A stretch of DNA of 64,000 nucleotides. Origin: a virus (taxonomy: Duplodnaviria; Caudoviricetes). Within the stretch, counting starts at the first letter, position 1, and each line of letters opens with the position of its first letter. The stretch lies in the IMG/VR virus record IMGVR_UViG_3300043803_000642, positions 606-64,605 of that record; one strand, 5' to 3'. Below, piece after piece: positions 15,838 to 40,549 of the stretch. A program made the translations under genes and the position numbers. The notes beneath the pieces were generated by a model. It made no database searches and was not told the origin of the DNA. It saw only the letters and a list, made by a program, of their open reading frames with translations.

Positions 15838-15865
15838 CATAGATTTATGCTATAACGCAGTAATT

Positions 15866-15939: not shown

Positions 15940-15946
15940 CAATTCG

Positions 15947-16420: not shown

Positions 16421-16432
16421 TAGGGGGCCAGC

Positions 16433-16949: not shown

Positions 16950-16951
16950 CC

Positions 16952-17200
16952 GTGGATATCAATTTGGTCTGGAACGGCGCGCTGTCGCTGTTTGTGGGCT
17001 TGTTTGCGTATGTCGCCCATGAGAAGTTCTCTGAGCTAGCGCGGATCACCATCTTGTTGAACAAGACGCGTGAGGAGATAGCACGGGATAACGTGACAAA
17101 GGCGGAAGTTGACCGCATCACCGATCACATAGATCAGCGATTCAACCGGCTGGAGAACAAGATCGACCAGCTGATTGAGTCACAGAGGAGAGTGTTATGA
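16952..17200 (+). CDS. Small membrane-anchored coiled-coil protein
   Basis: N-terminal hydrophobic helix; RFNRLENKIDQL. Confidence 0.65.
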   Translation: MDINLVWNGALSLFVGLFAYVAHEKFSELARITILLNKTREEIARDNVTKAEVDRITDHIDQRFNRLENKIDQLIESQRRVL

Positions 17201-17916
17201 AGCGCAAGACAAAGCGTTATCAAGACGGCGGCAAGACTGAAGACCAGTACAAGAAAGAAGGTCTTGAGTCATCCAAAGACGAAAAGGTCGGCTTCTTTGA
17301 GCGGCTTCGCATGGGCAATATAGATAACCCAAGCTCAGAAGCATATCGACGTTTTGGTGCCGGACGCGCAAAGATGGCAGAAGAGGCCAGAACGCCTGTG
17401 CCTGAGATGAGTAGCGACTACAGTGGTCGTGGCGCAAAATCCCAAAGTTCTTCTGGAAGTAGTGAGATGATGCCAAGAACCAAAGTCAGCGCTTCTGATA
17501 TTGGATTTACTGGCGGCGGCGAAGATGTAACAAATGAAAGTAGTTACATGCCGCGCAGCACATACAAGATGGAAGATATTGGTGATGCAACAAACGACGA
17601 TATAAAACCAAAACCAAAACCAAAGCCAAAACCTCGTAAGCGTGTAAGTCAATCGTTTGGAGAAACTGACTCTGATGCTTTGAACAAACGTCGTCTAGAA
17701 GGCTTGAAGAAAGAAGACTCTCCATACGGCAAAAGCGAAAGGCTTAAAGCGCTTATGGGAACCTTCTCCCCAGAGCGTTCTTCCAAGCGTTATGCAGAGT
17801 CCACTCCTTATGCACGTTCAAAGATGGGCATGAAGTCTGGCGGCAAGGTTAGTTCTGCATCCTCGCGCGCGGACGGTATCGCCCAGCGTGGCAAGACCAA
17901 GGGAAGGATCTGCTAA
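17197..17916 (+). CDS. Disordered protein with GG motifs and conserved C-terminal tag
   Basis: YQDGG; MKSGGKVSSASSRADGIAQRGKTKGRIC. Confidence 0.75.
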   Translation: MKRKTKRYQDGGKTEDQYKKEGLESSKDEKVGFFERLRMGNIDNPSSEAYRRFGAGRAKMAEEARTPVPEMSSDYSGRGAKSQSSSGSSEMMPRTKVSASDIGFTGGGEDVTNESSYMPRSTYKMEDIGDATNDDIKPKPKPKPKPRKRVSQSFGETDSDALNKRRLEGLKKEDSPYGKSERLKALMGTFSPERSSKRYAESTPYARSKMGMKSGGKVSSASSRADGIAQRGKTKGRIC

Positions 17917-18179
17917 TGGCTGACATGGCAAAAATGCAGATGCGCATTCGTGAGCTTGAGACTCGCCGCGAGAAGGGTGAGTCAGTTCCTGAACTTGATG
18001 CGCTCTACAAAAAGATGGATGCGTTAACCGAAAAAGGCTACGCCGAGGCTACAAAGACTGTGACGGGAGAAACACCGCCTGCGCCAGTGAAGAAAGCAAA
18101 AGGCGGTTCGGTTTCATCTGCTTCTGCCCGTGCTGATGGCTGCGCTATTCGCGGCAAAACCAAAGGAAGAATGGTATGA
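17916..18179 (+). CDS. Small protein with GG motif and conserved C-terminal tag
   Basis: KAKGGSVSSASARADGCAIRGKTKGRMV. Confidence 0.75.
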   Translation: MADMAKMQMRIRELETRREKGESVPELDALYKKMDALTEKGYAEATKTVTGETPPAPVKKAKGGSVSSASARADGCAIRGKTKGRMV

Positions 18180-18766
18180 GAAAGCGCAAAAAGTTTGCAG
18201 ATGGCGGCGTGACGGGTCAGACCCAGCAGCCTACATATCCGTTCTACGGTAATCAGCCTATGGCCGGTGGTCAGAGCGGCGGCATGAATCAGACGTTCAA
18301 CATGCAGCCACAAGCCATGTCTGGTCCTAACGATCAAATGACACAGCGCTTTGCCAAGGGTGGTCAGGCAAAGGTAGGCAAGGTCATGTCTGAGTTCAAG
18401 TCCGGCAAGCTGAAGAGTTCGTCGGGTCAGAAGGTAACGAATCCCAAGCAGGCCATCGCTATCGGGCTGTCCGAAGCTGGTCTTTCCAAGAAAGCTAAAG
18501 GAGGCGAGATGAAAGAGTCCAAAGCAATGGTCAAGAAAGAAGTGTCGTTCATGAAGAAGAAGGGCGCTCCTAAGTCTATGGTCAAGCATGAGATGGCAGA
18601 AGCCGGCATGAAGTACGGCGGCAAGGTCAAGAAGATGGCAAGCGGCGGCCTAGCTACTGGTCACAAGTCGGCTGACGGCGTTGCCACCAAGGGCAAGACC
18701 AAGGCTATGCAGGTCAAGATGGCCAAAGGTGGCATGACCAAGATGCGCAAAGGCGGCTACTGCTAA
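18176..18766 (+). CDS. Basic polyprotein-like protein with a DUF6496-like segment and multiple GG motifs
   Basis: KVGKVMSEFKSGKLKS...PKQAIAIGLSEAG; FADGG, FAKGG, KAKGG, MKYGG, MASGG, MAKGG, MRKGG. Confidence 0.75.
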   Translation: MRKRKKFADGGVTGQTQQPTYPFYGNQPMAGGQSGGMNQTFNMQPQAMSGPNDQMTQRFAKGGQAKVGKVMSEFKSGKLKSSSGQKVTNPKQAIAIGLSEAGLSKKAKGGEMKESKAMVKKEVSFMKKKGAPKSMVKHEMAEAGMKYGGKVKKMASGGLATGHKSADGVATKGKTKAMQVKMAKGGMTKMRKGGYC

Positions 18767-18778
18767 CAGGAGGCTGAC

Positions 18779-19054
18779 ATGATGCCCTCACGCGGGATGG
18801 GAGATATTGCTGCAAGCAAGATGCCCAAGGCTAGAACTAAGCGTCGCCGGGACAACACCGACTTCACGCAGTACAAAGAAGGCGGCAAGGTGAACGCTGC
18901 TGGTAATTACACCAAGCCAGAACTGCGCAAGCGGATCGTGGCGCAAGTAAAAGCAGCGGCTACTCACGGCACTGGCGCAGGTCAATGGTCAGCCCGCAAG
19001 GCACAGCTGGTGGCAAAGAAGTACAAGGCAGCAGGTGGAGGTTATCGTGGCTGA
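18779..19054 (+). CDS. DUF5872-like protein, N-terminal half
   Basis: YTKPELRKRI...GQWSARKAQL...YKAAGGGY. Confidence 0.65.
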   Translation: MMPSRGMGDIAASKMPKARTKRRRDNTDFTQYKEGGKVNAAGNYTKPELRKRIVAQVKAAATHGTGAGQWSARKAQLVAKKYKAAGGGYRG

Positions 19055-19559
19055 TGAAACCACTAGATACAAGTTGTGGGATCGAATTGAGAAAGTGTAT
19101 GTAGGCAACGACTACACAGACAAAAACCGCGCCAGATCTGCCGCAGATAAAAAAGACATGGAATATGGATCTGGTCGATATGCGGTTGATCCAATTAATT
19201 ACAAAGAGGGTGCATGGCGCGGTAGAAACAATCAAGCAACCAACGTTAAAGGTGGTCATGCACTTGCTGAAAGACTTGGTTTAGCATCAACATCGGAAGA
19301 AAAATTTAAGCCTTTAAGCCCGTCAGAAGACCCAGAGTTTCTTAAAAGGATGGGGGAGATAAAGAAACCACAGCCCAGGTCGGGCGGTGGTAGTGGTGGG
19401 GCGGCTTCTGATCGTCGTGAAATGCAACTTGGTGCTGAAATGGACCCAAAAGCTCTGATGAAGCGTGAAGAATACAAGCGTGGTGGCAAAGTTGTTGGTG
19501 CGTCACAACGTGGGGATGGTATTGCGCAGCGGGGTAAAACTCGTGGAAGGATGGTGTGA
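19047..19559 (+). CDS. Cargo-like protein with GG motif and conserved C-terminal tag
   Basis: YKRGGKVVGASQRGDGIAQRGKTRGRMV; GTG start after GGAGG. Confidence 0.75.
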   Translation: MADETTRYKLWDRIEKVYVGNDYTDKNRARSAADKKDMEYGSGRYAVDPINYKEGAWRGRNNQATNVKGGHALAERLGLASTSEEKFKPLSPSEDPEFLKRMGEIKKPQPRSGGGSGGAASDRREMQLGAEMDPKALMKREEYKRGGKVVGASQRGDGIAQRGKTRGRMV

Positions 19560-19560
19560 G

Positions 19561-19836
19561 ATGGCTAGCAAGTTTCCAGATCTGACCGGCGACGGCAAGG
19601 TAACGCAAGCAGACGTCCTGAAGGGTCGTGGCGTAGAGGGTATGAAGAAGGGCGGCTCCACAAAAAAGTGGATTCAGAGCGCAATCAAGAAGCCGGGCGC
19701 CCTGCGCGCTCAACTTGGCGCAAAAGAAGGCAAGCCGATTTCCCCTAAGAAGCTAGCCTCTGCTGCCAAAAAACCAGGGAAATTGGGCCAAAGAGCAAGA
19801 CTTGCCCAAACTCTGAAGAAAATGGGCAAGAAGTGA
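19561..19836 (+). CDS. Basic protein with an EF-hand-like DLTGDGKVTQAD loop and MKKGG
   Basis: Start reassigned to ATG 19561; WIQSAIKKPGAL...RARLAQTLKK. Confidence 0.7.
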   Translation: MASKFPDLTGDGKVTQADVLKGRGVEGMKKGGSTKKWIQSAIKKPGALRAQLGAKEGKPISPKKLASAAKKPGKLGQRARLAQTLKKMGKK

Positions 19837-20066
19837 AAGCACCGCAGCAGAGCCTGAAAGATTGGGGCGAGCAGAAATGGCGCACCAAAAGCGGCAAACC
19901 ATCGTCGAAGACAGGCGAGCGGTACTTGCCGGAGAAGGCTATCAAAGCGTTGTCTCCAGCGGAGTATGCGGCGACGACGCGAGCAAAGCGGGCAGGAAAG
20001 AAAGCGGGCAAGCAGTTCGTGAAACAACCCAAGGGCATAGCTCAGAAGACGGCGAGATTTAGGTAA
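19833..20066 (+). CDS. DUF5872-like protein, C-terminal half
   Basis: QQSLKDWGEQKWRTKSG...ERYLPEKAIKALS. Confidence 0.65.
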   Translation: MKAPQQSLKDWGEQKWRTKSGKPSSKTGERYLPEKAIKALSPAEYAATTRAKRAGKKAGKQFVKQPKGIAQKTARFR

Positions 20067-20806
20067 TGGCCTACACGACTTCTACGACCTCGTTTAATCC
20101 GACGGTCAACGACATCTTCGAAGAAGCCTTTGAGAGAGTCGGGCTGGAGATGCGCACGGGCTACGATTTTCGTACCGCCCGGCGCAGTCTGAACTTGCTG
20201 CTGACGGAGTGGGCAAATCGCGGCATCAACTTGTGGACTATCGAGCAGGGAACGATCCCGCTCGTACAGGGACAGATTACCTATGATCTACCTAATGACA
20301 CCGTGGATCTTCTGGAACATGTTATTCGAACCAATCCTGGGCAGATCGGGACTCAGTCAGACATTAACATCAACCGAATCTCTGTTTCCACCTACGCCAC
20401 AATCCCGAACAAGCTCACGCAAGGGCGCCCGATCCAAGTCTGGATAAACCGTCGCAGCGGCCAGACCAGTGATGCGCCCGGCGCTACGCCGCAGTATCCA
20501 CAGATCAACGTGTGGCCAAGCCCAGATCAAGGTACGGCACAGACACCGTACTACTACTTCGTGTACTGGCGGTTGCGTAGGATGGTGGATGTAGGCAACG
20601 GTGTAAACGTAGAAGATATCCCATTCCGCTTTCAGGAGTGCCTGATCTGCGGGTTGGCATATCGTCTAGCCATGAAGTTGCCGGGCGGTCTGGAGCGGTT
20701 GCAGTTCTTGAAGGCGCAGTACGACGAAGCGTGGGAGATGGCAGCGGGCGAAGATCGTGAGAAGGCACCTGATCGGCTGGTGCCACGCATGATCACGTAC
20801 AGGTGA
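20066..20806 (+). CDS. Putative head-tail adaptor/connector
   Basis: ARRSLNLLLTEWANRG, GRPIQVWI, VWPSPD, GLAYRLA. Confidence 0.65.
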   Translation: MAYTTSTTSFNPTVNDIFEEAFERVGLEMRTGYDFRTARRSLNLLLTEWANRGINLWTIEQGTIPLVQGQITYDLPNDTVDLLEHVIRTNPGQIGTQSDININRISVSTYATIPNKLTQGRPIQVWINRRSGQTSDAPGATPQYPQINVWPSPDQGTAQTPYYYFVYWRLRRMVDVGNGVNVEDIPFRFQECLICGLAYRLAMKLPGGLERLQFLKAQYDEAWEMAAGEDREKAPDRLVPRMITYR

Positions 20807-20809
20807 TGT

Positions 20810-21232
20810 ATGCCAAGTAAGTACGCTAGTGGCAAGAACAGTATTTCCGAGTGTGACCGGTGCGGTTTCCGGTACATGCTCAAAGAGTTGAAGACACTGA
20901 CGATCAAGACGAAGAACGTCAACATCAAGGTGTGCAGAACTTGCTGGGAACCTGACCAGCCGCAGTTGAGTCTGGGCTTGTACCCGGTGAATGACCCGCA
21001 GGCTGTGCGGGATCCGAGACCGGACAAGTCGTACTGGCAGTCGGGTTTGACTGGATTGCAGACGCAGTACAACTCTGGTACAGGTGAGTTACAGGATGGG
21101 TTTCCTGCTGGTGGTAGCCGGATCATTCAGTGGGGCTGGTCGCCGATTGGTGGCTCAAGAGCGAATGATGCTGGGCTAACGCCCAACAACTTGGTGGCAC
21201 AGACTACGGTCGCAAACGTGACCATTAACTAG
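20810..21232 (+). CDS. Zn-finger-containing morphogenesis protein
   Basis: CDRCGF...VCRTCWEPDQPQL...DPQAVRDPRPD. Confidence 0.7.
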   Translation: MPSKYASGKNSISECDRCGFRYMLKELKTLTIKTKNVNIKVCRTCWEPDQPQLSLGLYPVNDPQAVRDPRPDKSYWQSGLTGLQTQYNSGTGELQDGFPAGGSRIIQWGWSPIGGSRANDAGLTPNNLVAQTTVANVTIN

Positions 21233-21241
21233 GAGTGAGAG

Positions 21242-21391
21242 ATGGACAAGATGAAGCAGGTAGCCAAAGCCGAGGTGAAAGCGCATGAGAAGCGTATGCA
21301 CAAAGGCATGAAAAAGGGTGGCGTGACCACGTCCGATCTGAAAAAATACGGGCGGAACGAAGCTCGCATTCAGAACCAGAAAACCAAGTGA
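21242..21391 (+). CDS. 49-aa basic protein with MKKGG, absent from ORF track
   Basis: SD AGGAG; MDKMKQVAKAEVKAHEKRMHKGMKKGGVTT... Confidence 0.7.
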   Translation: MDKMKQVAKAEVKAHEKRMHKGMKKGGVTTSDLKKYGRNEARIQNQKTK

Positions 21392-21398
21392 GGTTGAG

Positions 21399-21620
21399 AT
21401 GGCTATCAAGAACATGGGTACGCCCAAGCCTGTAAAGGGTAATGGCAAGAAGTTGCCTGACCCGAACAACATCGCGGTAGACAAGCTGGGGCCGAAGACG
21501 GCTGTGCAGCGCGTGTCTGCTGGCGATCCTGGCCGCGAGGACACCAAGACTACCGGCATCAAGATCCGTGGCACTGGTGCGGCTACCAAGGGCGTGATGG
21601 CTAGAGGTCCGATGGCATGA
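21399..21620 (+). CDS. Small basic protein ending RGTGAATKGVMARGPMA
   Basis: SD GAGG; C-terminus loosely resembles the GxAxRG tag. Confidence 0.7.
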   Translation: MAIKNMGTPKPVKGNGKKLPDPNNIAVDKLGPKTAVQRVSAGDPGREDTKTTGIKIRGTGAATKGVMARGPMA

Positions 21621-22300
21621 CGTACACCGAGTTAGTCACGGCGATACAGGACTACACGGAGAACTACGAACAGACGTTCGTAGATAACATCCCGCTGTTT
21701 GTCCGTCAGACGGAGACCCGCATCTACAATGCGGTGCAGCTGCCGCCTATTCGCCGCAACTCGACAGGTACGCTGCTGACCGGTAACAAGTATCTGACCG
21801 CGCCGACAGACTTCTTGGCGGTGTACTCCATGGCTGTGATCGAGAACTACGGCACGGCAAACGAGGAGTATCACTACCTGCTGAACAAGGATGTGAACTA
21901 CATCCGTGCTGCGTATCCCACGCCGGCAGACACAGGGTTGCCGCAGTACTACGCGATCTTCGGCCCACAGGTAACGAGCAACACCACGACGGACGAACTG
22001 AGCTTTATCTTTGGCCCTACGCCGGATGATGCCTACACACTGGAGCTGCACTACTACTATTACCCAGAGTCGATTACGACAGCGCCAGATGGCCGTACGT
22101 GGCTGGGTGACAACTACGATCCGGCTCTGCTGTATGGCTCTTTGCGCGAGGCGTACTTGTTCATGAAGGGCGAGCAGGATTTGATTGCCAACGTCGAGGC
22201 CAAGTACAACGAGGCTATGGGTGAACTGAAGCGTCTGGGCGATGGCATGGAGCGTCAGGATGCGTACCGCAGCGGTCAGGTTAGGGTGAAAGTGACATGA
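21617..22300 (+). CDS. Putative tail tubular/adaptor protein
   Basis: MTYTELVTAIQDY, GLPQYYA, GPTPD, LLYGSLREA. Confidence 0.7.
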   Translation: MTYTELVTAIQDYTENYEQTFVDNIPLFVRQTETRIYNAVQLPPIRRNSTGTLLTGNKYLTAPTDFLAVYSMAVIENYGTANEEYHYLLNKDVNYIRAAYPTPADTGLPQYYAIFGPQVTSNTTTDELSFIFGPTPDDAYTLELHYYYYPESITTAPDGRTWLGDNYDPALLYGSLREAYLFMKGEQDLIANVEAKYNEAMGELKRLGDGMERQDAYRSGQVRVKVT

Positions 22301-22722
22301 CGATTTACCAAGGCCTGACCACATCGTTCAAGGTGGACATACTGAACGGGCGACAGAATATAGCGTCGGACTCTTTGAAGATGGCGCTGTATGACGGGTA
22401 TGTAGAGTTAGGTGAAAGCACGACCGCATATTCCACAACGAACGAGATTAGTGGTGCGGGCTACACGGCTGGTGGCGAGGGCTTGTCAAACGTCTCGATT
22501 GAGTCTACAAGCAACGGTATTGTGTATGTAAGTTTTGCCAATGTGGTTTGGACGAACGCTGAGTTCATCGCCAGAGGTGCGTTGATTTACAACGCTACTC
22601 GGGCGAATGCGTCGGTAGCCACGTTGGACTTTGGGAGCGACAAGACGCAGGCTGCGAATGGCACATTTACTGTGACGCTGCCACCAAATACGCCGTCCAG
22701 TGCGTTAATACGTATCAACTGA
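22297..22722 (+). CDS. Virion structural protein
   Basis: SFKVDIL...LKMALY...NEISGAGYTAGG...LDFGSDK. Confidence 0.7.
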   Translation: MTIYQGLTTSFKVDILNGRQNIASDSLKMALYDGYVELGESTTAYSTTNEISGAGYTAGGEGLSNVSIESTSNGIVYVSFANVVWTNAEFIARGALIYNATRANASVATLDFGSDKTQAANGTFTVTLPPNTPSSALIRIN

Positions 22723-22731
22723 GGAGTCATC

Positions 22732-23307
22732 ATGACGATTGAAAAATCAAAATCCAGCGAGACTGTCAGCGGCGGTGTAGAGCGCAAGACAGGTTTTGCT
22801 GAAGGTGCGTCTGGCGGCGGTGTGTTCACCGTTACTTGCTACGACAAAGACGGCAAAGAGAAGTGGGTAGACATGGGTCACAACCTGGTGGTGAACACCG
22901 GCTTGCAGGACATGAACACCAAGTACTTCAAGGGTTCGACCTACACGGCTGCTTGGTACATCGGGCTGATCAACAACACGTCGAGCAGCACCACGTTCTC
23001 CGGTGGAGACACGTTGGCATCTCACGCTGGCTGGGATGAGAACTCCAGCTACAGCGGCACTCGCCCGCAGGTGACGTTTGGTAACGCCACACTGGCAGAT
23101 CCGTCGAACATCAACAACTCGGCGTCTTTGGCTACGTTCACAATGACAGCGAATGCCACGATCTCTGGCGCGTTCTTGTGCAACGTGGCGTCTGGTACAT
23201 CTGGTCTGCTGTTCTCGGCGGCCGATTTCCAAGCGCCTGGCGATCGTACTGTTGTCAGCGGTGATGTTCTGAACGTGACGTACTCGTTCAACCTAGATGC
23301 AACTTGA
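22732..23307 (+). CDS. Virion structural protein
   Basis: HNLVVNTG, WYIGL, GDVLNVTY; beta-rich. Confidence 0.7.
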   Translation: MTIEKSKSSETVSGGVERKTGFAEGASGGGVFTVTCYDKDGKEKWVDMGHNLVVNTGLQDMNTKYFKGSTYTAAWYIGLINNTSSSTTFSGGDTLASHAGWDENSSYSGTRPQVTFGNATLADPSNINNSASLATFTMTANATISGAFLCNVASGTSGLLFSAADFQAPGDRTVVSGDVLNVTYSFNLDAT

Positions 23308-23319
23308 TAGGGGGTAGTC

Positions 23320-23493
23320 ATGTTTAAGAAGGGCGACGTAGTCAAGCTGAAGGCGGTGATTCCGCAGGGTCCAATCGTGAAGATGCGTATGGACGATGAC
23401 GGCAATATCTGGTGCCTGATGGAGTGGACGTCTGAAGATGGTCAGGCGCACAGTCGATGGTTTATGGATAGTGAGCTTGAGGCTGCGGAGTAA
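23320..23493 (+). CDS. 57-aa SH3-like (YodC-like) protein, absent from ORF track
   Basis: MFKKGDVVKLK...GP...W...F..SELE. Confidence 0.65.
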   Translation: MFKKGDVVKLKAVIPQGPIVKMRMDDDGNIWCLMEWTSEDGQAHSRWFMDSELEAAE

Positions 23494-23496
23494 TGC

Positions 23497-24459
23497 GTGG
23501 ATGGCGGCTTTGGTAGCGGCACATGGGGGCAGGCTGGCTGGGGCTGTTCAGTATATGACCGGCTGATATCGAACGGCGGTTGGGGTAACGGTGCTTGGGG
23601 GTCAGATGGCTGGGGTCTTGGTGATGGTGGGCTGGTCAAAGGCGCTGATACAGTCAGTGCAGAGATACAGCCCAAGATCGTTGCAAACATCGCCGAGTCT
23701 GCTGTTGTTACTGACTTCTACTTTGCTAGCCTCAATGTCACCGGCGCTGTTGCCGAGTCTGCTGCTGCTGCCGATACTGTTGCTAGCGCTCTGTCTGTCA
23801 CAGGCGCAGTTTCTGAGACGGTCACGGGCAGCGATACAGTCAGCTCGCTGGCGTCGGTAGGTGCGCAGGTAACAGAAACCGCGCAGACGGCAGATGTAGT
23901 CAGCAGTCTGGCAAACATGAACTCTCAGGTATCTGAGAGTGCGACAGGAAGTGATGCAGTAACACCGAGGAACAACAGGTTTGGTACTGTCAGTGAGTCG
24001 GTAGCAGGAAATGAAACGGTAGCGTCGCAGGTGTCGTTCACGAGTGTGGCGGCGGAGACGGTAGCGGCGCAGGATCAGGTAGTAGGCAGGTTTGGTATTT
24101 CAGGTGCGATTGCGGAGAGCGCAAATGCGACAGACATACTGGAAGTGTTCAACAGCATCGCCTTCGCTATCAGCGAGGATGCCAGCGCTTCTATCACGGT
24201 GTCTGCGCAGGCCAACTTTGCTGCAAGCGTGTCTGATGCTGTGGTTACGTCAGACAGTGATAGTGCGAGTGCAAGCTTCATCGCAAGGATTCTGGAATCG
24301 GTTGTGGCAGAAGATGTTGCCCGCCGCAGATTCTTGTGGGAGCCTATTGAAACAGGCGGTAATGTTACATGGTCGGCCATCAACACCGGCGGTGCTGGTA
24401 CATGGACACCAATAGTCACGGGCAACGCGGCGACCTGGACGGTCATCAATACAGTTTAA
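23497..24459 (+). CDS. Repetitive virion fibre/stalk protein
   Basis: N-terminal WG repeats; about 19-aa (V/I)xE(S/T)xxxxD repeats. Confidence 0.7.
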   Translation: MDGGFGSGTWGQAGWGCSVYDRLISNGGWGNGAWGSDGWGLGDGGLVKGADTVSAEIQPKIVANIAESAVVTDFYFASLNVTGAVAESAAAADTVASALSVTGAVSETVTGSDTVSSLASVGAQVTETAQTADVVSSLANMNSQVSESATGSDAVTPRNNRFGTVSESVAGNETVASQVSFTSVAAETVAAQDQVVGRFGISGAIAESANATDILEVFNSIAFAISEDASASITVSAQANFAASVSDAVVTSDSDSASASFIARILESVVAEDVARRRFLWEPIETGGNVTWSAINTGGAGTWTPIVTGNAATWTVINTV

Positions 24460-24468
24460 GGAAAGATC

Positions 24469-25137: not shown

Positions 25138-25172
25138 TCAATTTGATAACACGAACATTCAAGGAGTAAATT

Positions 25173-25574: not shown

Positions 25575-25583
25575 AGGTACGAC

Positions 25584-27233: not shown

Positions 27234-27244
27234 CAAGGTGAAGC

Positions 27245-28915: not shown

Positions 28916-28921
28916 AAGCCT

Positions 28922-31364: not shown

Positions 31365-31366
31365 AA

Positions 31367-33502: not shown

Positions 33503-34380
33503 CATCACAGATCGTTACTACGGAATCTCTTGTACTCACCCGGACGAAAGCCCCGGCGCTCCCTATCGCCCCGACAGAGTACAGCCGCCAGTACATTGAT
33601 CAGCTGAACAATGTTCTACGACTGTACTTTTCTCAACTTGATAACTTTGTAGGACAGCTGACCGCAAACGGTTCCAACGTTACGTCCAACATAGTATTGC
33701 CGCATGGTGCTTTCCATCAGGACGGGTACACCACGCTGTCGGTAGATATTCCGAACCCAACGTCCACCGCAAACATCGTCGTTGCGTCCACGACAGGATT
33801 TCAAAACACCGGCACGATCTTGATTGGTGCCGAGTTTATAAATTACAGCGGCGCAACTAGCAACACGTTCACCGGTATCACTCGCGGGATGTACAGCTCG
33901 ACAGCGTCTTCCCACAACGCCGGTGTTTACGTATCGGAATCACAAGCAGTAGCCAATTCGACAACTGCTCTGGCAGTTATCATGTCAGCAACAGATGCGA
34001 GTGAAGGCGTTTACATAGATCCGGCGGACAAAACCAAGATTGTTTTTGATTACGCTGGGTACTACAACATCCAGTTCAGTATTCAGTTATTAACGTTTGA
34101 CGGCGATGACAACGTAGTACTGTGGTTCAAGCAGAATGGTAACGATGTTGCCAACAGCGCGGGTGTGGTGACAGTGCCTGCCACGCATGGCGGCCAGCCG
34201 GGGGCGGCGATTGTGTCGTGGAATTTGGTTTTGCCGCTGAACGTAAATGACTACATCCAGCTGTACATGGCATCTGGCACAGGAAAATCTTTGGCCGCAA
34301 CCTACCCGCCAGGGACTACGCCTGTGCATCCTGCTTCTCCCGCAGTCATCTTGACGGCAACCTTTGCCTCGGCGCTGTAA
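33499..34380 (+). CDS. Tail spike/needle-like protein with C-terminal C1q-like domain
   Basis: LNNVLRLYFSQLD helix; AGYYNIQFSIQL...DYIQLY. Confidence 0.6.
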   Translation: MTSQIVTTESLVLTRTKAPALPIAPTEYSRQYIDQLNNVLRLYFSQLDNFVGQLTANGSNVTSNIVLPHGAFHQDGYTTLSVDIPNPTSTANIVVASTTGFQNTGTILIGAEFINYSGATSNTFTGITRGMYSSTASSHNAGVYVSESQAVANSTTALAVIMSATDASEGVYIDPADKTKIVFDYAGYYNIQFSIQLLTFDGDDNVVLWFKQNGNDVANSAGVVTVPATHGGQPGAAIVSWNLVLPLNVNDYIQLYMASGTGKSLAATYPPGTTPVHPASPAVILTATFASAL

Positions 34381-34437
34381 CAGTATGTTTATAGCGAGCA
34401 AAATGATACGATTGACAAAATTTTGTAAGGATGTGCT

Positions 34438-37400
34438 ATGAGCCTCCATAACTTAGCCCAACACCTCCAGAGCGCTGGTAGGGGCGACGATAAAGTCCTA
34501 GTCCACATGACGCCGGGCGAAGTGCAGGGCTTGCAATCACTGGCCATGGCGCACGGCGGTAGTCTGACTATCAATCCGCAGACCGGACTTCCAGAGGCAG
34601 GATTTCTAGACAGCATCTTGCCGATGATCGCAGGCTTTGCTCTAGGACCAGCAGGCTTTGCTTTGATGAGTCCTATGCAAGCAGCCTTGACGGTAGGCGC
34701 TGTTGGCACGTTGGCTACCGGCAGTCTGGGCAAAGGCTTGATGGCAGGCCTTGGCGCGTTTGGTGGCGCAGGAATAGGTGGTGCGTTAGCAGGCGGAACG
34801 GCAGGTGCTGTTGCATCAAGTGCCGATGATGTTTTAAGTGCCGCCAACACGTTTAAAGGTGCCACGCCAGCACAGATACAACAAGTTGCCAGTGGTCAGG
34901 CGGTTACTGGTCCTACTGGTATCACTCAATCTCTAGCGTCTAAAGCGCTGACCCCGACGCAGCAAATGCAGGCAAACGTGCTTGCTTCTCCCGTCGGAAA
35001 GCTTGGGACTAATTTGGCCCAGCCACAGTTTGTCGGAGAAGGCTCGCGCATATTTGCGACGCCGGCAGATCTGGCTCGCGGCGTTACTAACACCGGTGTG
35101 CAAAGCCTAGCCAAAGTAGCGCCAGAGACCTTTTCCGAAAGATTGTCTGCTGTGGGTCAAGGGCTGAAGAACATTACTTCTGATCCCAAGAAACTAATTC
35201 AATTTGTCAAAGACAATCCGTACGAGTCTGCGGCATTAGCAACAAGCTTGGCTTCGGGTATGCAAGAAGACACCAAGTTCCCAGAGCGCAAAAAGGGCGA
35301 GCCACTCAAGAAACTGCAATATGAGTACGAGCCGATACCTATAGGCGTTGCAGGCACGTCCGAGCGCAACTACTTCCCGAACGCACGATTCACACCGACA
35401 GGAGAGGTCTACGCAGCGGGCGGTGGCCTGATGGGCTTGGCAGAAGGCGGCACAGTCGAGGAAATGTCACGGCTGAATGCTGTCGGTGCAAACACGATGT
35501 ACCCGATGGCAAACCAGATGTCATACAAGTACAGCACTCCAAGACAGCGCCCTATCTCTGAGAACGTTATCCGTCCTGCGGGAGAAGCCCGGATAGATCC
35601 GTACACAGGAGAGCAGCAGCTGGCCGAGGGTGGCGCTATTGCAGCTGCGTATGAAAAGTACTTAGGTCGTGCGCCAGATCCAGCAGGCTTGGCGTTTTAC
35701 TCCGATCCGAACATTTCTAATGAGCGTGTAATTGCCGATCTGTCTTACGCCAACAACCCAGAGAGAGCGCAGTTTTTGTCAAGAAGTTCTACCGGTGGCG
35801 GTGGTAGCACTGTAAGTACGGGTGGTGGCACAGCAGCCAACCAAGCAGCGGTTGCTCAAGCAATATCTTCCGGTCAAGCATCGTCAGGAACAGTCAACAT
35901 CCCGCAAGGCGCGTTTTACTACGGCGGCGGCATCCCGGATCCATTTGGTTATGGAAAAACTGGAACTACCACAGGTGATGCACAAGCCGTGGAATCTCCG
36001 TTTGCAAAGACAAGCTTCCGTCTTGGTAGTCAAGCACCGACTATCGGCGCCCAGACCACTGCCGCATCACCTAGCCAAGTGGCAGACATCTACGAGCGTG
36101 TACTCGGCCGTCAGGTAGATCTACCGGGGTTGGAATTCTACGCAAGACAACAGCGTTTGGCGCCATCTGCTCTTGAGCAGACGTTGCAGTACTCGCCAGA
36201 GTTCTTTGAGAATCTTGCCAAGCCCTTAGTGCCGAAGCTGGTGTACGACCAATCCGGCAGAGCAATGATCGAGGGTAGTGGTGTTCCATACAACCCTGCA
36301 CAGTACGGTTATCCCGGCCCTGTGGTGCAACCGCCGTCTCTGCCAAAGATGTCGGCAACTGCGCCGTCTGGTGGTATTACGGGTGGCATTACAGGCGGCA
36401 CTACAGGTGGAACCACAGGCGGCATCACAGGCGGCATCACTGGTGGGACTACCGGCGGAACTACGGGCGGTACTACAGGTGGGACCACAACCGGAACTGG
36501 CAGAGAAATCAGCACAGCACCGGGCGCGTACCAGTACAACTACTTCGAGAACAAGCCCGAAGAGAACGCGCTCATTAGACAGTACCAGACTGGTCCAAAC
36601 GAGAAGGCACGGGCAGACTTGACCGAGTTGTATCTCAGACAGCTTGGCCGTTTGCCAGATGCACCGGGCTTTGATTACTACATGAAGACTATCGGCGCGG
36701 ACAACATCATTGATCCGAAAGAAGCTGAGATGTTTATAAACAACGCATCGCCCGAGCTTGCAGACAGACGGGCGCTGACAGCGTTGTACCGCGAGGTTGG
36801 TGGTCGTGACCCAGACATCCCTGGCCTTGAGTACTACATGAGCGAGATAGGCAAAGCAGGTGGCATTGATCCTATCAAGGACAGACTTATTGCTGGCCTG
36901 AAGCAAGAAGTGGACATGGCCAACGCAGGTTATCGCGCACCCACCCCAAATCAGATGGGTAGTCGTATGACAGAAGCGGAGGCTGCTGCATTGCAGGCGA
37001 AAGCACCGTTCTTGTACGGCACGATCCCCGGCACAGTAAGTTCTGAATATCCTGCCGGGAGAGACAACAACAAAGCGCGCGAGCAGCTGTACAACCTGTA
37101 TGAGCAGAAGCTAGGCCGCACACCAGACATGGCAGGATTCAATTATTGGATCAACGAGTTTGGTCGCGATAACCAGATCGATGCAGCAGAAATGGCAAAG
37201 TTCTTGCAAGGCGCAAAAGAGGCTGGTGAAACCGTGCGTATGGCTGGCGGTGGTATCGCTGATCTTGGCGGTTATTCTGACGGTGGCAGACTACTGAAAG
37301 GACCCGGAGATGGAGTTTCTGATTCTATCCCTGCTGTCATTGGCGACCGGCAGCCTGCTCGTCTTGCTGATGGTGAGTTTGTAATCCCTGCACGTATCGT

Positions 37401-37545
37401 GTCAGAGCTTGGCAACGGTTCCACAGATGCTGGCGCTCGCAAGTTGTACGCGATGATGGACAGAATCCAGCGCGCCCGCAAGAAGTCTGTAGGCAAGCAG
37501 AAGGTAGCGGTCAACAGTAGAGCAGAGAAGTATCTGCCCGCATGA
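34438..37545 (+). CDS. Internal virion/ejection protein with five DUF4214-like repeats and GG motifs
   Basis: GRGDDKVLVHMTPGEV...INPQTGLPE; (L)YxxxLGRxPDxxGxxY x5; GPGDGVSDSIPA...LADGEFVIPA. Confidence 0.7.
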   Translation: MSLHNLAQHLQSAGRGDDKVLVHMTPGEVQGLQSLAMAHGGSLTINPQTGLPEAGFLDSILPMIAGFALGPAGFALMSPMQAALTVGAVGTLATGSLGKGLMAGLGAFGGAGIGGALAGGTAGAVASSADDVLSAANTFKGATPAQIQQVASGQAVTGPTGITQSLASKALTPTQQMQANVLASPVGKLGTNLAQPQFVGEGSRIFATPADLARGVTNTGVQSLAKVAPETFSERLSAVGQGLKNITSDPKKLIQFVKDNPYESAALATSLASGMQEDTKFPERKKGEPLKKLQYEYEPIPIGVAGTSERNYFPNARFTPTGEVYAAGGGLMGLAEGGTVEEMSRLNAVGANTMYPMANQMSYKYSTPRQRPISENVIRPAGEARIDPYTGEQQLAEGGAIAAAYEKYLGRAPDPAGLAFYSDPNISNERVIADLSYANNPERAQFLSRSSTGGGGSTVSTGGGTAANQAAVAQAISSGQASSGTVNIPQGAFYYGGGIPDPFGYGKTGTTTGDAQAVESPFAKTSFRLGSQAPTIGAQTTAASPSQVADIYERVLGRQVDLPGLEFYARQQRLAPSALEQTLQYSPEFFENLAKPLVPKLVYDQSGRAMIEGSGVPYNPAQYGYPGPVVQPPSLPKMSATAPSGGITGGITGGTTGGTTGGITGGITGGTTGGTTGGTTGGTTTGTGREISTAPGAYQYNYFENKPEENALIRQYQTGPNEKARADLTELYLRQLGRLPDAPGFDYYMKTIGADNIIDPKEAEMFINNASPELADRRALTALYREVGGRDPDIPGLEYYMSEIGKAGGIDPIKDRLIAGLKQEVDMANAGYRAPTPNQMGSRMTEAEAAALQAKAPFLYGTIPGTVSSEYPAGRDNNKAREQLYNLYEQKLGRTPDMAGFNYWINEFGRDNQIDAAEMAKFLQGAKEAGETVRMAGGGIADLGGYSDGGRLLKGPGDGVSDSIPAVIGDRQPARLADGEFVIPARIVSELGNGSTDAGARKLYAMMDRIQRARKKSVGKQKVAVNSRAEKYLPA
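36370..36500 (+). repeat. Coding tandem repeat GG(I/T)T, about ten copies
   Basis: GGITGGITGGTTGGTTGGITGGITGGTTGGTTGGTTGGTT. Confidence 0.85.
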
Positions 37546-37988
37546 ACTTAGAGGGCAAGTTAGAGTGGTTTGGTGGCAACGAAGATGCGCTTGCCATGTA
37601 TCGGATGTTCATTGACTTGGCACACACCTGGGATGACTTGGTAGACAAGGACAAGGAAGTTTCCGAGGCAAGGATTAACAACGCGTTCATGATCTGTTTG
37701 GTGTATCTGCCCATGAACAAGTTTTATCAAACCATACAGTATGCGATCTTGCCCATGTGGATCGCGGTAGTGTCGGCGTATCAGACGGCCAATCACTACG
37801 AAAGAACGAAAGACGAGCATGGCATTGAAATAGCGCACGGCCTTCGGTATGCGGTTGGCAACATCATTACCTACGCCGTGCATGTTTGTATAGGCCCAGA
37901 GCAAGCAGCGAATTACATGCCGGAAGTGTGGAAGCAGATCATGGTTGAGCGGTACGACAATTACCGCAAGGAGCATCTAAATGTTTAA
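37542..37988 (+). CDS. All-alpha protein with DDxxD motif (isoprenoid synthase/prenyltransferase-like)
   Basis: LAHTWDDLVDKD; helical pattern; lies between ejection genes. Confidence 0.55.
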   Translation: MNLEGKLEWFGGNEDALAMYRMFIDLAHTWDDLVDKDKEVSEARINNAFMICLVYLPMNKFYQTIQYAILPMWIAVVSAYQTANHYERTKDEHGIEIAHGLRYAVGNIITYAVHVCIGPEQAANYMPEVWKQIMVERYDNYRKEHLNV

Positions 37989-39015
37989 TTTTTTCAAGTG
38001 GCTGTTTAACCCTTCTTGGTTTACGTTCAACATGGGCGATGGTGGTGGTGGCACTCCCACCGCGATGACGCAGACAGCGCTGTCGTACTCGCCGGAAGTC
38101 CAGCCACTGGTCAATCAAGTGTTGATGGAGTCTGCCGGTCTAGCGCAGCAGCAGTACCAGCCATATCAGTACCAGCGTATCGCAGGCTTTGACCCTATGC
38201 AGCTGCAAGCGCAGCAGGCAACGGCCAACCTCGCGGTATCTCCGTATGTGAACCCGGCTGCCCAAGCTGCTACCGGCGCGACACAAGCTGGTCTCGCAGG
38301 CATCTACAACCCATCTCTTTTGGCTGGTGAGTCATTCACAGCGCCTGGCATGGCAGCGTCCTACATGTCACCGTACATGCAGAACGTGGTGGACATCGGC
38401 AAGCGTGAGGCGCAGAGACAGGCAGATGTTGCTCGTACACAGCGTGGCTTTCAGGCTGCCCGCGCAGGTGCGTTTGGTGGCTCGCGTCAGGCCATCATGG
38501 AGGCAGAAGCCCAGCGTAATTTGGCGCAGCAGATGGGCGACATCCAAGCCAGAGGATCGCAGGCTGCATACGAGCAAGCAGCACAGCAGTTCCAGTCTGA
38601 GCAGGCGCGTCGCCTACAGGCATCGCAGCTTGGTCTGACATCGGCGTTGCAGGGTGCGCAACAGCTGGGTCAGTTAGGCCAACTACAGTTCGGTCAGGCC
38701 AAGGATATCGTCGGCTTGCAGGCAGCAGCGGGCGCAGAGCGTCAGGCGTTGCAGCAGAAGAAGCTGGAGCAGGACTACCAAGACTTCCTGCGTCAGAAGC
38801 AGTTCCCATATCAGCAGGCGCAGTTCATCATGGAGATGGCGCGTGGTATGCCGATGCAATCGACAGAACAAATCTACAAAGCGCCGCCGTCTGCGCTGGG
38901 TCAGTTGGGCGGTCTTGCGGCTATCTATGCTGGCACACGAGCAAATCAAGGTATGCCCATCTTTGGCGCCAAAGGCGGCCTGATGGAACTAGGCCTGCAC
39001 AACTTGAAGGACTAA
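37981..39015 (+). CDS. DNA transfer/ejection protein
   Basis: Gln/Ala-rich; YMSPYMQNVV, AGAFGGSRQAI; aromatic N-terminal leader then GGGG. Confidence 0.7.
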   Translation: MFNFFKWLFNPSWFTFNMGDGGGGTPTAMTQTALSYSPEVQPLVNQVLMESAGLAQQQYQPYQYQRIAGFDPMQLQAQQATANLAVSPYVNPAAQAATGATQAGLAGIYNPSLLAGESFTAPGMAASYMSPYMQNVVDIGKREAQRQADVARTQRGFQAARAGAFGGSRQAIMEAEAQRNLAQQMGDIQARGSQAAYEQAAQQFQSEQARRLQASQLGLTSALQGAQQLGQLGQLQFGQAKDIVGLQAAAGAERQALQQKKLEQDYQDFLRQKQFPYQQAQFIMEMARGMPMQSTEQIYKAPPSALGQLGGLAAIYAGTRANQGMPIFGAKGGLMELGLHNLKD

Positions 39016-39019
39016 GAAC

Positions 39020-40549
39020 ATGGCTATCCCTGGCATCCAAGAGATACAGACGCTGGCAACCAAGTACAGCAAGACACAGTTGCAGCAGATGGCGCAGAGG
39101 GGTCTGATAGATCCGACCAAGGCCGTGATGGCCGGGATGATGATCGACCGCATCCAGCAACAGAACATGCAACCTCCGCAGCAGACAGTGGCAGATGAGG
39201 TGCTGGGGGTCAACGTCCTGCGCGATCGCTTTGGCAACGTGGTTCGTTCTGGCTCTGGGCAAGCAGTCCGCACTGGCGTTGAGCAAGACCGATTTGGTAA
39301 TGTAATTCGCCCAACCGAGAAACAATCAGCGGGCGTGACAGCGCTACCTTCGGGCTTGCCAGAGGAAATGGCAGGCGGCGGTCTTGTGGCGTTTGCTGAA
39401 GGTGGCGATGTACCGGGCTATGCCAAGGGTGATCTTATTGATGCCGCAGATACTGTAAGACGTTCCGGCATGACGCCTGATCAGCTTGCCCAGATGTTTT
39501 CTTCAGCTGCTCCGGGCGCACCTGCTGATTCTGGCACTCCTGCCGTCCAGCCTGCGCAAAGCGGTATTCAGAATTTGGCGTTTCCAAAAGAAGCCGGCAT
39601 GGGTGGCGTGAAATTGCGAGACTACCCGACACGCCCAGAACCTTCTCTCAAAAGCGAGTTTGATTTATTGCGTGAGGCGCAAAAAGAAGCTGGGCTGGAT
39701 GACGCGGCTATGTTCAGGCAGATGCGCGAGGAAGAGAAAGCTCGGCGCGAGGAATTGAAAGGGCGCAAAGATCAGGCGTTTGGTAATGCTCTAATCATGG
39801 CGGGCTTTGGTTTGCTGGGCGCTCGCAAGGGCGAGGAGTTTGAGGTTCTGTCCACGGTCGGTAGACAAGGCGTCATGCAGTATGGCGCAGCCCTAAAAGA
39901 TATCAGAGAGACAGAAAACGATATCAGGAAAGCCGAGCGTCAATTGACATTGGCAGAGAATCAACTCAAGCGTGATCAATCTTCTAAAGCGCAAGATCGT
40001 TACGACACCAAGCTCAAAGAACTGCGTGATATAGAGATCAAGTCTGTTGATCAGTACAATAAAACTGTTGGCGATCTTGCAAAACTCAACATGGATGTGT
40101 TCAAGCTTAACGAAGAAAAGGCGTATCGCATGGCGATTGCCCAGCTTGAATCCCAGACTAGGCTTGATGTTGAAAAGTTGCAGCAAAGCGGTGCGTTTGC
40201 AAGAGCCGGAATGGGCGAGACATCTACATTGGCAAAAGAAGTTTTGGCGGATTTACGCAAGACCAATCCAAATGCCACGCTTGCTGATGCTGTTGCTATC
40301 GTTAAAGGTGGTGGTGGCGTTAGCGCAGCATCTTTGGCGGACAAAGCTGCCGACAATGTATCCAAGCGAGCGCAGGTTGATATGAACTTTGCCATGAGTT
40401 TGCGTGATCCAAATGCATATGCAAAAGCCGTGGAAGAAGAAACTCGCAGACTGCAAGGGCAGGCTGGGAGGCCATCGACAACCGGCGCCTCGGCATATCA
40501 ATTAAGTCCAGAAGCACAGAAAGCCCTGCAACAGTACGGCGGAAAATAA
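39020..40549 (+). CDS. Internal virion/ejection protein
   Basis: MAGGGLVAFAEGG; long coiled coil. Confidence 0.65.
   Translation: MAIPGIQEIQTLATKYSKTQLQQMAQRGLIDPTKAVMAGMMIDRIQQQNMQPPQQTVADEVLGVNVLRDRFGNVVRSGSGQAVRTGVEQDRFGNVIRPTEKQSAGVTALPSGLPEEMAGGGLVAFAEGGDVPGYAKGDLIDAADTVRRSGMTPDQLAQMFSSAAPGAPADSGTPAVQPAQSGIQNLAFPKEAGMGGVKLRDYPTRPEPSLKSEFDLLREAQKEAGLDDAAMFRQMREEEKARREELKGRKDQAFGNALIMAGFGLLGARKGEEFEVLSTVGRQGVMQYGAALKDIRETENDIRKAERQLTLAENQLKRDQSSKAQDRYDTKLKELRDIEIKSVDQYNKTVGDLAKLNMDVFKLNEEKAYRMAIAQLESQTRLDVEKLQQSGAFARAGMGETSTLAKEVLADLRKTNPNATLADAVAIVKGGGGVSAASLADKAADNVSKRAQVDMNFAMSLRDPNAYAKAVEEETRRLQGQAGRPSTTGASAYQLSPEAQKALQQYGGK

Follow-up and report, generated by a model that had tools for sequence, protein, structure and literature searches.

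The DNA analyzed here (the window) is a stretch of 64,000 nucleotides, bases 606–64605 of a 64,605-bp virus record (IMGVR_UViG_3300043803_000642) with a CheckV completeness of 100%, and is a near-complete 64.6-kb podophage, kin of HTVC023P and Pag-Yong1. Its small basic proteins and ejection proteins carry a recurrent pentapeptide, φ-x-x-G-G, where φ is a hydrophobic residue, which the initial annotation had taken for a proteolytic processing code. The present analysis revealed that the pentapeptide is the common core of several larger conserved modules and, in the reading preferred here, not a free-standing code. It is enriched, position-specific and conserved, and the modules occupy defined locations in their proteins and are abundant in metagenomes. 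We tentatively favor a role as a turn-forming motif that stays uncleaved and serves as a hinge or docking element on cargo inside the capsid.

All the motifs named in the initial annotation were found in the small basic and ejection genes (positions are those of the window, and genes lie on the + strand unless stated otherwise). Those of the small basic genes are YQDGG (17218), MKSGG (17830), KAKGG (18093 and 18491), FADGG (18194), FAKGG (18350), MKYGG (18608), MASGG (18635), MAKGG (18719), MRKGG (18743), YKEGG (18872), YKRGG (19473) and MKKGG (19642), with a second MKKGG at 21308 in a 49-aa open reading frame (ORF; 21242–21391); the ejection proteins hold LAEGG and MAGGG, two copies each, along with YSDGG, GAKGG and FAEGG. 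The claimed concentration in these two classes held against a control in which residues were permuted within each protein (5000 shuffles). The pattern [MFYLK][AKQSR]xGG occurred 14 times vs. 1.76 expected in six small basic proteins (0/5000 shuffles) and 8 times vs. 2.16 expected in four ejection proteins (10/5000 shuffles). The corresponding counts were 3 vs. 3.03 in 35 other + strand proteins, a group from which two proteins of 33–34% glycine (25584–28915) were left out, and 0 vs. 1.23 in the 2066-aa polyvalent protein, which showed no motif enrichment. For [MFY]xxGG, 12 copies were counted vs. 1.45 expected (0/5000 shuffles) in the same six small basic proteins, 9 vs. 2.69 (13/5000 shuffles) in the ejection proteins and 6 vs. 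4.49 in the 35 others. Against a background of 10.4%, M, F or Y stood at −3 in 12 of the 21 GG runs of seven small basic proteins (binomial P = 1.8e-7); positions −4, −2, −1, +2 and +3 showed no such enrichment. The −3 signal of the four ejection proteins was weak (6/35 GG runs, P = 0.14) because a (I/T)TGG repeat supplies many of the GG runs, and the remaining window proteins gave 8/55 (P = 0.13). It is thus in the small basic proteins that the enrichment is strong and tied to one position; within this single window the ejection proteins show it more weakly. The copies are partly non-independent, as four come from a single paralogous C-terminal module and another two from a single N-terminal leader; the roughly nine independent copies are still far over expectation. 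The initial annotation had also seen no motif in the terminase, which was not borne out, as it holds FRQGG (residue 468), conserved in 31 of 32 relatives' ORFs, and the C-terminus of the M15 endolysin is YKSGG.

Two of the modules form the ends of the 239-aa basic protein encoded at 17197–17916, which consists of an N-terminal leader (MKRKTKRYQDGG), a variable middle and a C-terminal tail (MKSGGKVSSASSRADGIAQRGKTKGRIC). The leader, basic MKKKxKRYxxGG of only 11–12 residues, is present on two proteins (MKRKTKRYQDGG and MRKRKKFADGG) and ends in GG. The 239-aa protein has 761 homologs at E ≤ 0.001, and an alignment of 26 of them showed invariant K4, K6, R7, G11, G12, G215, G216, D226, G227, A229, G232, K233 and T234; the leader and the tail, GMKxGGKVSSASxRADGIAQRGKTRGRIC, were invariant or nearly so, and the middle was rich in indels. 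The tail module spans ∼30 residues, φ-KxGG-KVSSASxRADG(I/C)AxRGKT(K/R)G-R-φ-(C/V), and also ends the products of 17916–18179 and 19035–19559 and, in modified form, that of 18176–18766. A profile built from nine tails matched at least 7,799 proteins at E ≤ 0.01 (8,000 candidates scored), and among the listed tail proteins no Pfam family was found, save for one with DUF6496. In the 73 newly listed proteins, which measure 72–379 residues and have unrelated N-terminal parts, the tail copy was placed at most 21 residues from the C-terminus in every case, and [MFY]xxGG was kept in 68. All nine aligned tails contain GxxxxG(K/R)T (window 17860–17900, 18120–18160, and 19500–19540). This is a resemblance to the Walker A pattern only, in a peptide far too short for an NTPase, and the stretch may be a phosphate-binding loop. 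Tail copies inside three database proteins (P0126, P0127 and P0135) continue as ...GK(M/V)C-QE(N/I)xM...; these look like read-through of a stop, a ribosome-binding site and the next ATG, and could be gene fusions or gene calls with a TAG=Gln code. Phage internal proteins are already known to carry signals and linkers, and tape measure proteins to have glycine-rich regions. The motif and the two abundant modules appear undescribed, no paper naming them having been found in a search that for most papers covered listings or text passages; likewise, no literature was found on DUF3008, DUF6321 or DUF6496.

Most of the motif-bearing small genes form part of a run at 16695–20066. Their products have net charges of +6 to +29 and pI values of 9.7–10.9, and these values, together with the gene position between capsid and adaptor and the segments shared with ejection proteins, suggest that they are packaged with the DNA. 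The run opens with an 84-aa protein of pI 10.8 (16695–16949) that belongs to DUF6321 (Pfam E 6.8e-20), ends in KWKC, has no φ-x-x-G-G and gave tblastn matches in 549 phage records, mostly of cyanophages and pelagiphages. After the 239-aa protein comes an 87-aa basic protein (17916–18179) with a helical N-terminal part and the tail KAKGGSVSSASARADGCAIRGKTKGRMV. The 196-aa basic protein encoded at 18176–18766 (net charge +29, 9% Met, 16% Gly) is a mosaic of the following order: leader with FADGG; Q-rich stretch; FAKGG and DUF6496 (residues 58–101, Pfam E 1.5e-9); KAKGG and a helical stretch; MKYGG-KVKK-MASGG and the GKT tail; MAKGG; MRKGG; and a C-terminal YC. That the motifs of this protein sit at the borders of recognizable segments, as the initial annotation noted, was evident from its sequence, nearly every pair of modules being separated by one. 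ESM Atlas placed it with DUF6496 viral clusters only. The 91-aa basic protein at 18779–19054 has YKEGG opening a phrog_17747 domain (residues 32–90, PHROG E 3.5e-23), and is followed by a protein of at most 174 aa with an uncertain start (19035–19559), assigned by tail-module alignment and ending in YKRGGKVVGASQRGDGIAQRGKTRGRMV, and by a 91-aa protein of pI 10.9 and 22% Lys (19561–19836) that carries MKKGG and whose ATG at 19561 comes directly after the stop of the preceding gene. In the 49-aa basic ORF at 21242–21391, MKKGG follows ...AHEKRMHKG, and this stretch recurs in mosaic proteins of relatives. The tblastn searches against phages gave no match for the 196-aa and 239-aa proteins and one chance-level match (E = 7) for a 52-aa tail, the low-complexity filter probably masking these queries. 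Three unrelated small basic proteins end in Cys (KWKC at 16695–16949, RIC at 17197–17916, and GYC at 18176–18766). The last residue was Cys in 42/48 DUF6321 ORFs, 32/42 of the 18176 group and 10/22 of the 17197 group among relatives, and a predominant C-terminal Cys was confined to groups of the small basic genes; the terminal Cys could form disulfide links or bind metal inside the particle.

Similar arrays were observed in the ejection proteins (34438–40549). The first, of 1035 aa (34438–37545), contains DUF4214 repeats (Pfam), a tenfold (I/T)TGG and a C-terminal domain, RLLKGPGDGVSDSIPA...GEFV (37213–37542), hereafter the GEFV domain. The array MAGGG-IADLGG-YSDGG (37240–37287) opens this domain of ∼105 residues, RLLKGPGDGVSDSIPA...ADGEFVIPARIV.... 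A profile of the GEFV domain matched 12,955 representative clusters at E ≤ 0.001, 2,800 of them at ≤1e-30. The 150 representatives listed come from 50%-identity clusters. In every one of them the domain was C-terminal, with N-terminal parts of 19 to ∼1,100 residues, and a motif stood exactly 4 residues before a GxG turn; in 144 of the 150 the upstream 45 residues contained two to four motifs, often without a spacer, e.g., MASGGMAGGGYNLGGYSDGG. The tenfold (I/T)TGG tetrapeptide lies at residues 645–684 of the 1035-aa protein (36370–36490), which has two or more DUF4214 repeats. The second ejection protein (37981–39015; 344 aa, Q-rich; PHROG "DNA ejection protein," E 1.1e-12) has the C-terminus ...FGAKGGLMELGLHNLKD, its motif lying at 38965–38979, and its relatives end F[AK]xGG-LxxLxLHNM. 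The third, of 509 aa (39020–40549), has MAGGGLVAFAEGG (39368–39406) between a conserved N-terminal and a variable C-terminal part. Across its family the motif pair follows the conserved N-terminal part and a PQ-rich linker, [MYF]AxGG-[IL]VA-FxxGG is kept in 18/18 homologs, some with tandem additions (FADGGDIDDYADGGVVGYAGGG), and the downstream sequence differs between homologs. The same protein contains RDRFGNxVRSGSGxxVRTG twice (39200–39320), a segment that is also an alternative N-terminal segment in homologs of the 239-aa protein, an instance of module exchange between ejection and small basic proteins.

A pattern search of IMG/VR for the capsid gene had relatives in 599 of its first 600 matches, and the conservation of the motif was evaluated in the best 80. 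The orthologous small basic groups held 29 motifs vs. 2.7 expected, 16 vs. 1.5, 146 vs. 17.3 (18176 group, 42 ORFs, with varying copy number), 37 vs. 4.2 (18779 group, 35 ORFs) and 13 vs. 1.4, and no enrichment was observed in the portal (3 vs. 11.8), capsid protein (0 vs. 15.1) or scaffold (0 vs. 1.6), all these counts being inflated by relatedness. Conserved matches also occurred in folded proteins, namely, terminase (31 in 32 ORFs) and the 22297–22722 group (35 in 32 ORFs), with 14 vs. 3.2 expected in the 20810–21232 group. The small proteins of the relatives comprised 137 distinct proteins with 238 distinct motif contexts, the logo of which reads K-K-[MYF]-[AK]-[KSE]-G-G-[KMS]-[VAT]-K, and M, F, Y and L interchange at φ. 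Spacing between motifs peaked at 8–9 residues (30 of the spacings listed), with 3 at 5 residues; 27 copies end 2–4 residues from the C-terminus, and no relative's protein ends exactly at GG, at least 2 residues always following. The mosaic relatives are assembled from leader, Q-rich stretch, DUF6496, a helical FMKKKGAPxSMxKHE stretch and tails, with motifs between them, and contain Met/Lys-rich tandem repeats such as MKKGGMMKKMAKGGYADGG; Pfam scans of five of these mosaic proteins gave nothing above noise. Among more distant phages, Pag-Yong1 encodes a 308-aa protein with YAKGG...YASGG and a tail (YASGGMIGRDGCAKRGRTKGRFI; also in MinM2) plus an 83-aa MKKGG protein, DSL-LC04 encodes three small proteins with the motif plus one of 825 aa that opens FAMGG...MADGG...FAEGG, and HTVC023P has a few motif copies; no small basic motif proteins were found in the regions examined of CRP-901 and Caulobacter phage RW. 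In the T7-like marine phages P-SCSP1h and Jormungand, DUF6321 and a further small, very basic gene lie next to the capsid gene, without motif enrichment. Owing to this patchy presence in distant relatives, the motif genes can be regarded as an accessory, fast-changing set.

In the tentatively favored reading, the pentapeptide, a conserved and position-specific short motif with M, F or Y at φ and often K/M and V/A after the diglycine, would serve as a turn-forming hinge or docking element of proteins that travel inside the capsid. Its modules would connect a "cargo" part that varies to a "handling" part that is conserved, and four types may be envisaged: the basic leader, the ∼30-residue tail, the multivalent Met/Lys-rich repeats, and the arrays of 2–4 pentapeptides opening the GPGDGVSDSIPA...GEFV domain. 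The hydrophobic residue and the diglycine turn would act either as a flexible joint or as a docking element for a partner, which could be the scaffold, the portal, the capsid interior or a further internal protein, most copies would stay uncleaved, and the GxxxxGKT stretch of the tail with its basic flanks would suit binding to DNA phosphates. Since the residues after GG are conserved to the same degree as those before it, a module fits better than a bare cleavage site. The spacing, the spacer-free arrays (MAAGGMADGGYNLGGYSDGG), the C-terminal copies and the varying copy number correspond to the behavior of multivalent linear motifs. The restriction of the motif to likely internal proteins, the confinement of the enrichment to −3, the conserved ends around a variable middle, the abundance and C-terminal position of the tail and GEFV modules and the lack of a detectable GG-cutting protease also speak for the hinge or docking function. 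Prediction of a complex of capsid protein, scaffold-like protein and tail (residues 196–239 of the 17197 protein) gave a score of 0.00, which is uninformative both ways. Several observations weigh against this function. No binding partner of the motif was found, and in the 18176–18766 protein a motif lies between nearly all module pairs, as in a polyprotein. The motif precedes at least four modules that are unrelated to one another (DUF6496, the phrog_17747 domain, the GKT tail and the GEFV domain), and such a portable signal would suit cleavage as much as docking. The existence of basic (MKKGGK) and acidic (FADGGD, YSDGG) versions may make a single common partner doubtful, the matches in folded proteins (terminase, 22297–22722 group) mean that the pentapeptide alone is not diagnostic, and the presence of the small basic proteins in the virion is itself putative. 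Three other likenesses were considered and dropped: RTX nonapeptides have the hydrophobic residue in another register, the hydrophobic residues of the GroES mobile loop come after GG, and a lanthipeptide-type leader and core would call for modifying enzymes, which are absent, and the core here is conserved.

The initial annotation had recognized no canonical prohead protease, and a six-frame search of the whole 64,605-bp genome agreed, with 0 matches to Peptidase_S78 (Peptidase_S77 had no separate search). The same search gave no match to Peptidase_C39, Prok-JAB or JAB, 0 matches at E ≤ 1 to Peptidase_C5 and Peptidase_C48 (clan CE), from which a very divergent enzyme could escape, and 0 matches at E ≤ 10 to the MPTase-PolyVal HMM of Pfam; a JAB/MPN isopeptidase was dropped, its HMMs being without a match. 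Pfam and PHROG scans showed no prohead protease among the portal-to-capsid genes, and in the late genes and ten minus-strand genes the M15 endolysin (30903–31364) was the only protease-type match. The product of 14233–14889, just upstream of the capsid gene, was checked because the gene occupies a possible place of a prohead protease. Its AF2 model (pLDDT 89.8) gave Foldseek matches to capsid-associated proteins of HFTV1, Sf11, TW1 and Pam3 (probability 0.6–1.0), and by this model the gene encodes a capsid decoration/cement-like protein. The only candidate protease in the genome is an HExxH domain (42737–43519) within the 2066-aa polyvalent internal protein (40550–46750), which combines ART-PolyVal and LPD38 domains with an N-terminal part resembling that of N4-type virion RNA polymerase (Pfam, PHROG); Pfam scans of sub-regions of this protein gave nothing. 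The HELLH at 43043–43057 is the only HExxH in any ORF of at least 120 aa, and H103, E104 and H107 were invariant in 11 sequences of 37–84% identity. An AF2 model of the domain (pLDDT 71) had as its best VIA-align match the PhiM1 tetrameric ejection protein (Z 8.7), followed among zincins by an anthrax lethal factor domain (Z 5.3), 3e11 (4.3), botulinum light chain (4.2), PPEP-2 (4.1) and minigluzincins (3.7–3.8); the top Foldseek row was a putative zinc metallopeptidase at E 0.31, and no row reached E ≤ 0.001. Zincin peptidase domains have been described as the commonest domain of polyvalent proteins, with self-processing proposed (Iyer et al. 2017; PMC5512222). The present protein resembles those described there in having an invariant HExxH in a large packaged protein with ART-PolyVal and LPD38 domains, but differs in that the MPTase-PolyVal HMM found no match and the best structural neighbor is a T7-type ejection protein domain, the zincins having Z 3.7–5.3. 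The domain is a candidate zincin-like domain, no more. A homolog was detected in one of five related cultured or assembled phages (Pag-Yong1), with none detected in HTVC023P, DSL-LC04, CRP-901 or Caulobacter phage RW.

Adenain sites are (M/I/L)xGG-x and (M/I/L)xGx-G in basic core proteins, and African swine fever virus (ASFV) polyproteins are cut at GG-x. The window proteins are similar in having a hydrophobic residue upstream of the diglycine and in being basic and presumably DNA-associated, and cleavage would set free short peptides from their ends; the basic C-terminal peptide, with Cys at or close to its end, has a likeness in adenovirus pVIc. However, the hydrophobic residue is one place further from GG, P2 is not Gly, and the pentapeptides form directly adjacent arrays. 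The analogy with adenovirus drawn in the initial annotation was thus not upheld, as [MIL]xGG occurs once vs. 1.70 expected, the hydrophobic residue is at −3 and not at −2, and no clan CE protease matched. The capsid-targeting sequences of T4 internal proteins, which end LxE or IxE, are removed by the prohead protease. Two small basic proteins here and many homologs likewise have a conserved leader of ∼11 residues, but it is basic and ends in GG, no prohead protease matched, and the scaffold is separate, with a capsid protein lacking a delta domain. A GG-ended leader is also shared with the C39 double-glycine leader system, for which the Peptidase_C39 HMM had no match in the genome. Encapsulin cargo-loading peptides are short terminal peptides directing cargo into an HK97-fold shell; the tail is similarly short, terminal and conserved, combines Gly with hydrophobic and basic residues and is found on diverse proteins presumed bound for the interior of such a shell, whereas the sequences are unrelated and binding of the tail to the capsid protein is putative. 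Pfam KGG (PF10685) is similar in its KGG tripeptide in small hydrophilic basic proteins, and its HMM gave 0 matches in the genome at E ≤ 10.

The GEFV domain further showed a weak likeness to tape measure proteins. Among PDB sequences it matched mycobacteriophage Douge gp16 (E 0.025 with a single sequence and 0.014 with a profile, matched twice) and JBD30 gp46 (E 0.061) marginally, and it matched the tape measure family phrog_7025 weakly (E 0.0044). Douge gp16 (twice) and JBD30 gp46 have [YF]-[AS]-x-G-G, x-[LI]-x-G-P-G-x-G-x-S-D-S-[IM] and ...G-E-F-[VI] in common with the domain, and φ-x-x-G-G comes directly before the GPG turn in each: YSDGG-RLLK-GPGDG here, YAGGG-FLS-GPGTG and YANGG-FLS-GAGTG in Douge, and FASGG-HIK-GPGTG in JBD30. 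The tape measure proteins of Douge, JBD30 and lambda are alike in also exiting via the tail channel, but the present podophage is without a tape measure protein and carries the domain at the C-terminus of ejection proteins. The last 120 residues of lambda gpH (733–853), within the C-terminal region that is cut off or kept as gpHC, contain FATGG (733–737)...GEFV, YATGG (778–782) and MRDGG, and gpH has four [MFY]xxGG vs. 0.51 expected (9/5000 shuffles). It scores only 0.3 bits with the GEFV-domain profile; therefore, this is a pattern resemblance and not demonstrated homology. Lambda gpH loses a C-terminal piece of ∼14 kDa from its glycine-rich region, with site and catalyst unexplained (PMC12617516), and T5 pb2 is also cleaved, after R1127 (PMC10038345). 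A lambda fragment of 13.9 kDa would begin near residue 720, and a cut after FATGG would give 12.2 kDa. The papers on P-SCSP1u, PhiM1 and Douge do not mention small basic proteins or the motif in the parts available.

Proteolytic processing is a somewhat less probable explanation of the motif. A protease would cut after or within φ-x-x-G-G, removing leaders, freeing basic C-terminal peptides of ∼23 residues, splitting mosaics and parting a variable effector from a conserved ejection domain, with the packaged HExxH domain, a host protease or an autocatalytic step as the agent. The placement of motifs at module junctions, at the conserved/variable border in 18/18 homologs of the 509-aa family and 150/150 GEFV representatives, and at the end of a conserved 11–12-residue leader is consistent with it, and so are the invariant HExxH with its weak zincin-like fold matches and the zincin processing proposed for polyvalent proteins (PMC5512222). 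Likewise, lambda gpH is cut in the glycine-rich region bearing FATGG, YATGG and MRDGG and T5 pb2 is cleaved (PMC12617516; PMC10038345). On the other hand, the register is unlike that of adenain sites, with the [MIL]xGG count below expectation; none of S78, C5, C39, C48, JAB and MPTase-PolyVal matched in six frames of a genome rated 100% complete, and the gene before the capsid gene encodes a decoration-like protein. Adjacent pentapeptides and copies 2–4 residues from the C-terminus would yield products of 2–5 residues, no relative's protein ends at GG, and DSL-LC04 and HTVC023P carry motif proteins without a detectable HExxH domain. The T5 site is not GG, and in lambda the first residue of a 13.9-kDa fragment would fall near position 720, not behind FATGG. 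That the arrays are the recognition element of a widespread cleavage of proteins leaving with the DNA, the same event as gpH → gpH* + gpHC, seems improbable.

It appears about equally improbable that K-K-φ-K-x-G-G-K-V is a DNA-condensing motif, a minor-groove or phosphate binder in which Met or an aromatic residue would be the wedge and glycine would form the turn, by which histone-like core proteins would neutralize packaged DNA, the acidic look-alikes in the ejection proteins being unrelated. Such a role agrees with the charge and pI of the small proteins, the K at −2, −1, +1, +2 and after GG in the logo, the GxxxxG(K/R)T of 9/9 aligned tails and the location of the genes in the head module, similar very basic small genes flanking the capsid gene in T7-like marine phages. 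However, the φ-xx-GG core is also conserved in acidic contexts (FADGGD, YSDGG, FAEGGD), and no DNA-binding family was matched (Pfam, PHROG). The basic proteins of T7-like marine phages are without the motif, and the regions examined of CRP-901 and Caulobacter phage RW contain no small basic protein that bears it; the motif is therefore not required for basic head proteins generally. A pattern with no specific function, arising by paralogy, slippage in Gly/Lys/Met-rich low complexity and recombination at GC-rich GGCGGC stretches that mark module borders, was judged very unlikely. Several copies are indeed paralogous, copy number varies with tandem arrays, the proteins are highly mosaic with segments common to small and ejection proteins (RDRFGNxVRSGSG), and GG is encoded mostly by GGCGGC; yet G-G and the hydrophobic residue at −3 are invariant or nearly so across homologs of 43–70% identity whose neighboring regions are indel-rich, the enrichment is confined to one position, and the array before the GEFV domain is kept in 150/150 representatives of 50%-identity clusters.

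The kinship of the phage was evident from its portal, which showed 40–45% identity to those of Synechococcus phage MinM2, Planktothrix phage Pag-Yong1, pelagiphages HTVC023P/HTVC027P and Roseobacter phages CRP-901/CRP-902, and 33% to Caulobacter phages. The late genes extend from ∼8.2 to 46.8 kb: large terminase (8266–9741), portal (9751–12219), a GroES-like (Cpn10) protein (12359–12808) between portal and scaffold, the scaffold-like protein (12823–13776), two small genes, the major capsid protein (14900–15808), decoration-like genes, the small basic genes, the adaptor (20066–20806) and the tail genes downstream. The GroES-like gene has the same place in HTVC023P, Pag-Yong1, CRP-901, DSL-LC04 and Caulobacter phage RW. 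Megablast of window 14000–34000 against phages gave no match, PDB sequence searches with the portal, the capsid protein and 14221–14886 gave nothing useful, and ESM Atlas returned unnamed viral clusters for 13769–14212. Two adjacent paralogs of 549 and 556 aa (25584–27233 and 27245–28915), with 33–34% glycine and Lys/Arg nearly absent, consist of repeated GGGGG runs and units such as TYAGGGGG and ANTGGGGGG and are probably tail or fiber components. A 2OG-Fe(II) oxygenase (29176–29784; PF13759, E 4e-20) is also found among the late genes. On the − strand, 47320–57687 holds a sugar-nucleotide/glycosylation gene cluster that comprises GDP-mannose 4,6-dehydratase, two epimerase/dehydratase family proteins, a DegT-type aminotransferase, a TPP enzyme, two GT2 glycosyltransferases and a GT10 fucosyltransferase-like protein; possibly this is an auxiliary pathway by which the virion or the surface of the host is modified.

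One tail in at least 7,799 database proteins and one ejection domain in 12,955 clusters represent very abundant modules without a family name, occurring in a podophage group common in aquatic metagenomes. If the motif does direct cleavage, it would be a concrete candidate for the cleavage site of lambda gpH; were the event the same as in gpH, which seems improbable, this phage lineage would have extended it to a set of basic core proteins, each releasing a ∼23-residue, P-loop-like, Cys-ended DNA-binding peptide, a phage counterpart of adenovirus core maturation run by the packaged HExxH domain or by self-cleavage and not by a prohead protease. The loading, holding and release of internal proteins in podophages without a prohead protease are poorly understood, and a portable signal joining variable cargo to a conserved handle would aid the annotation of "dark" phage genes and the loading of foreign proteins into capsids.

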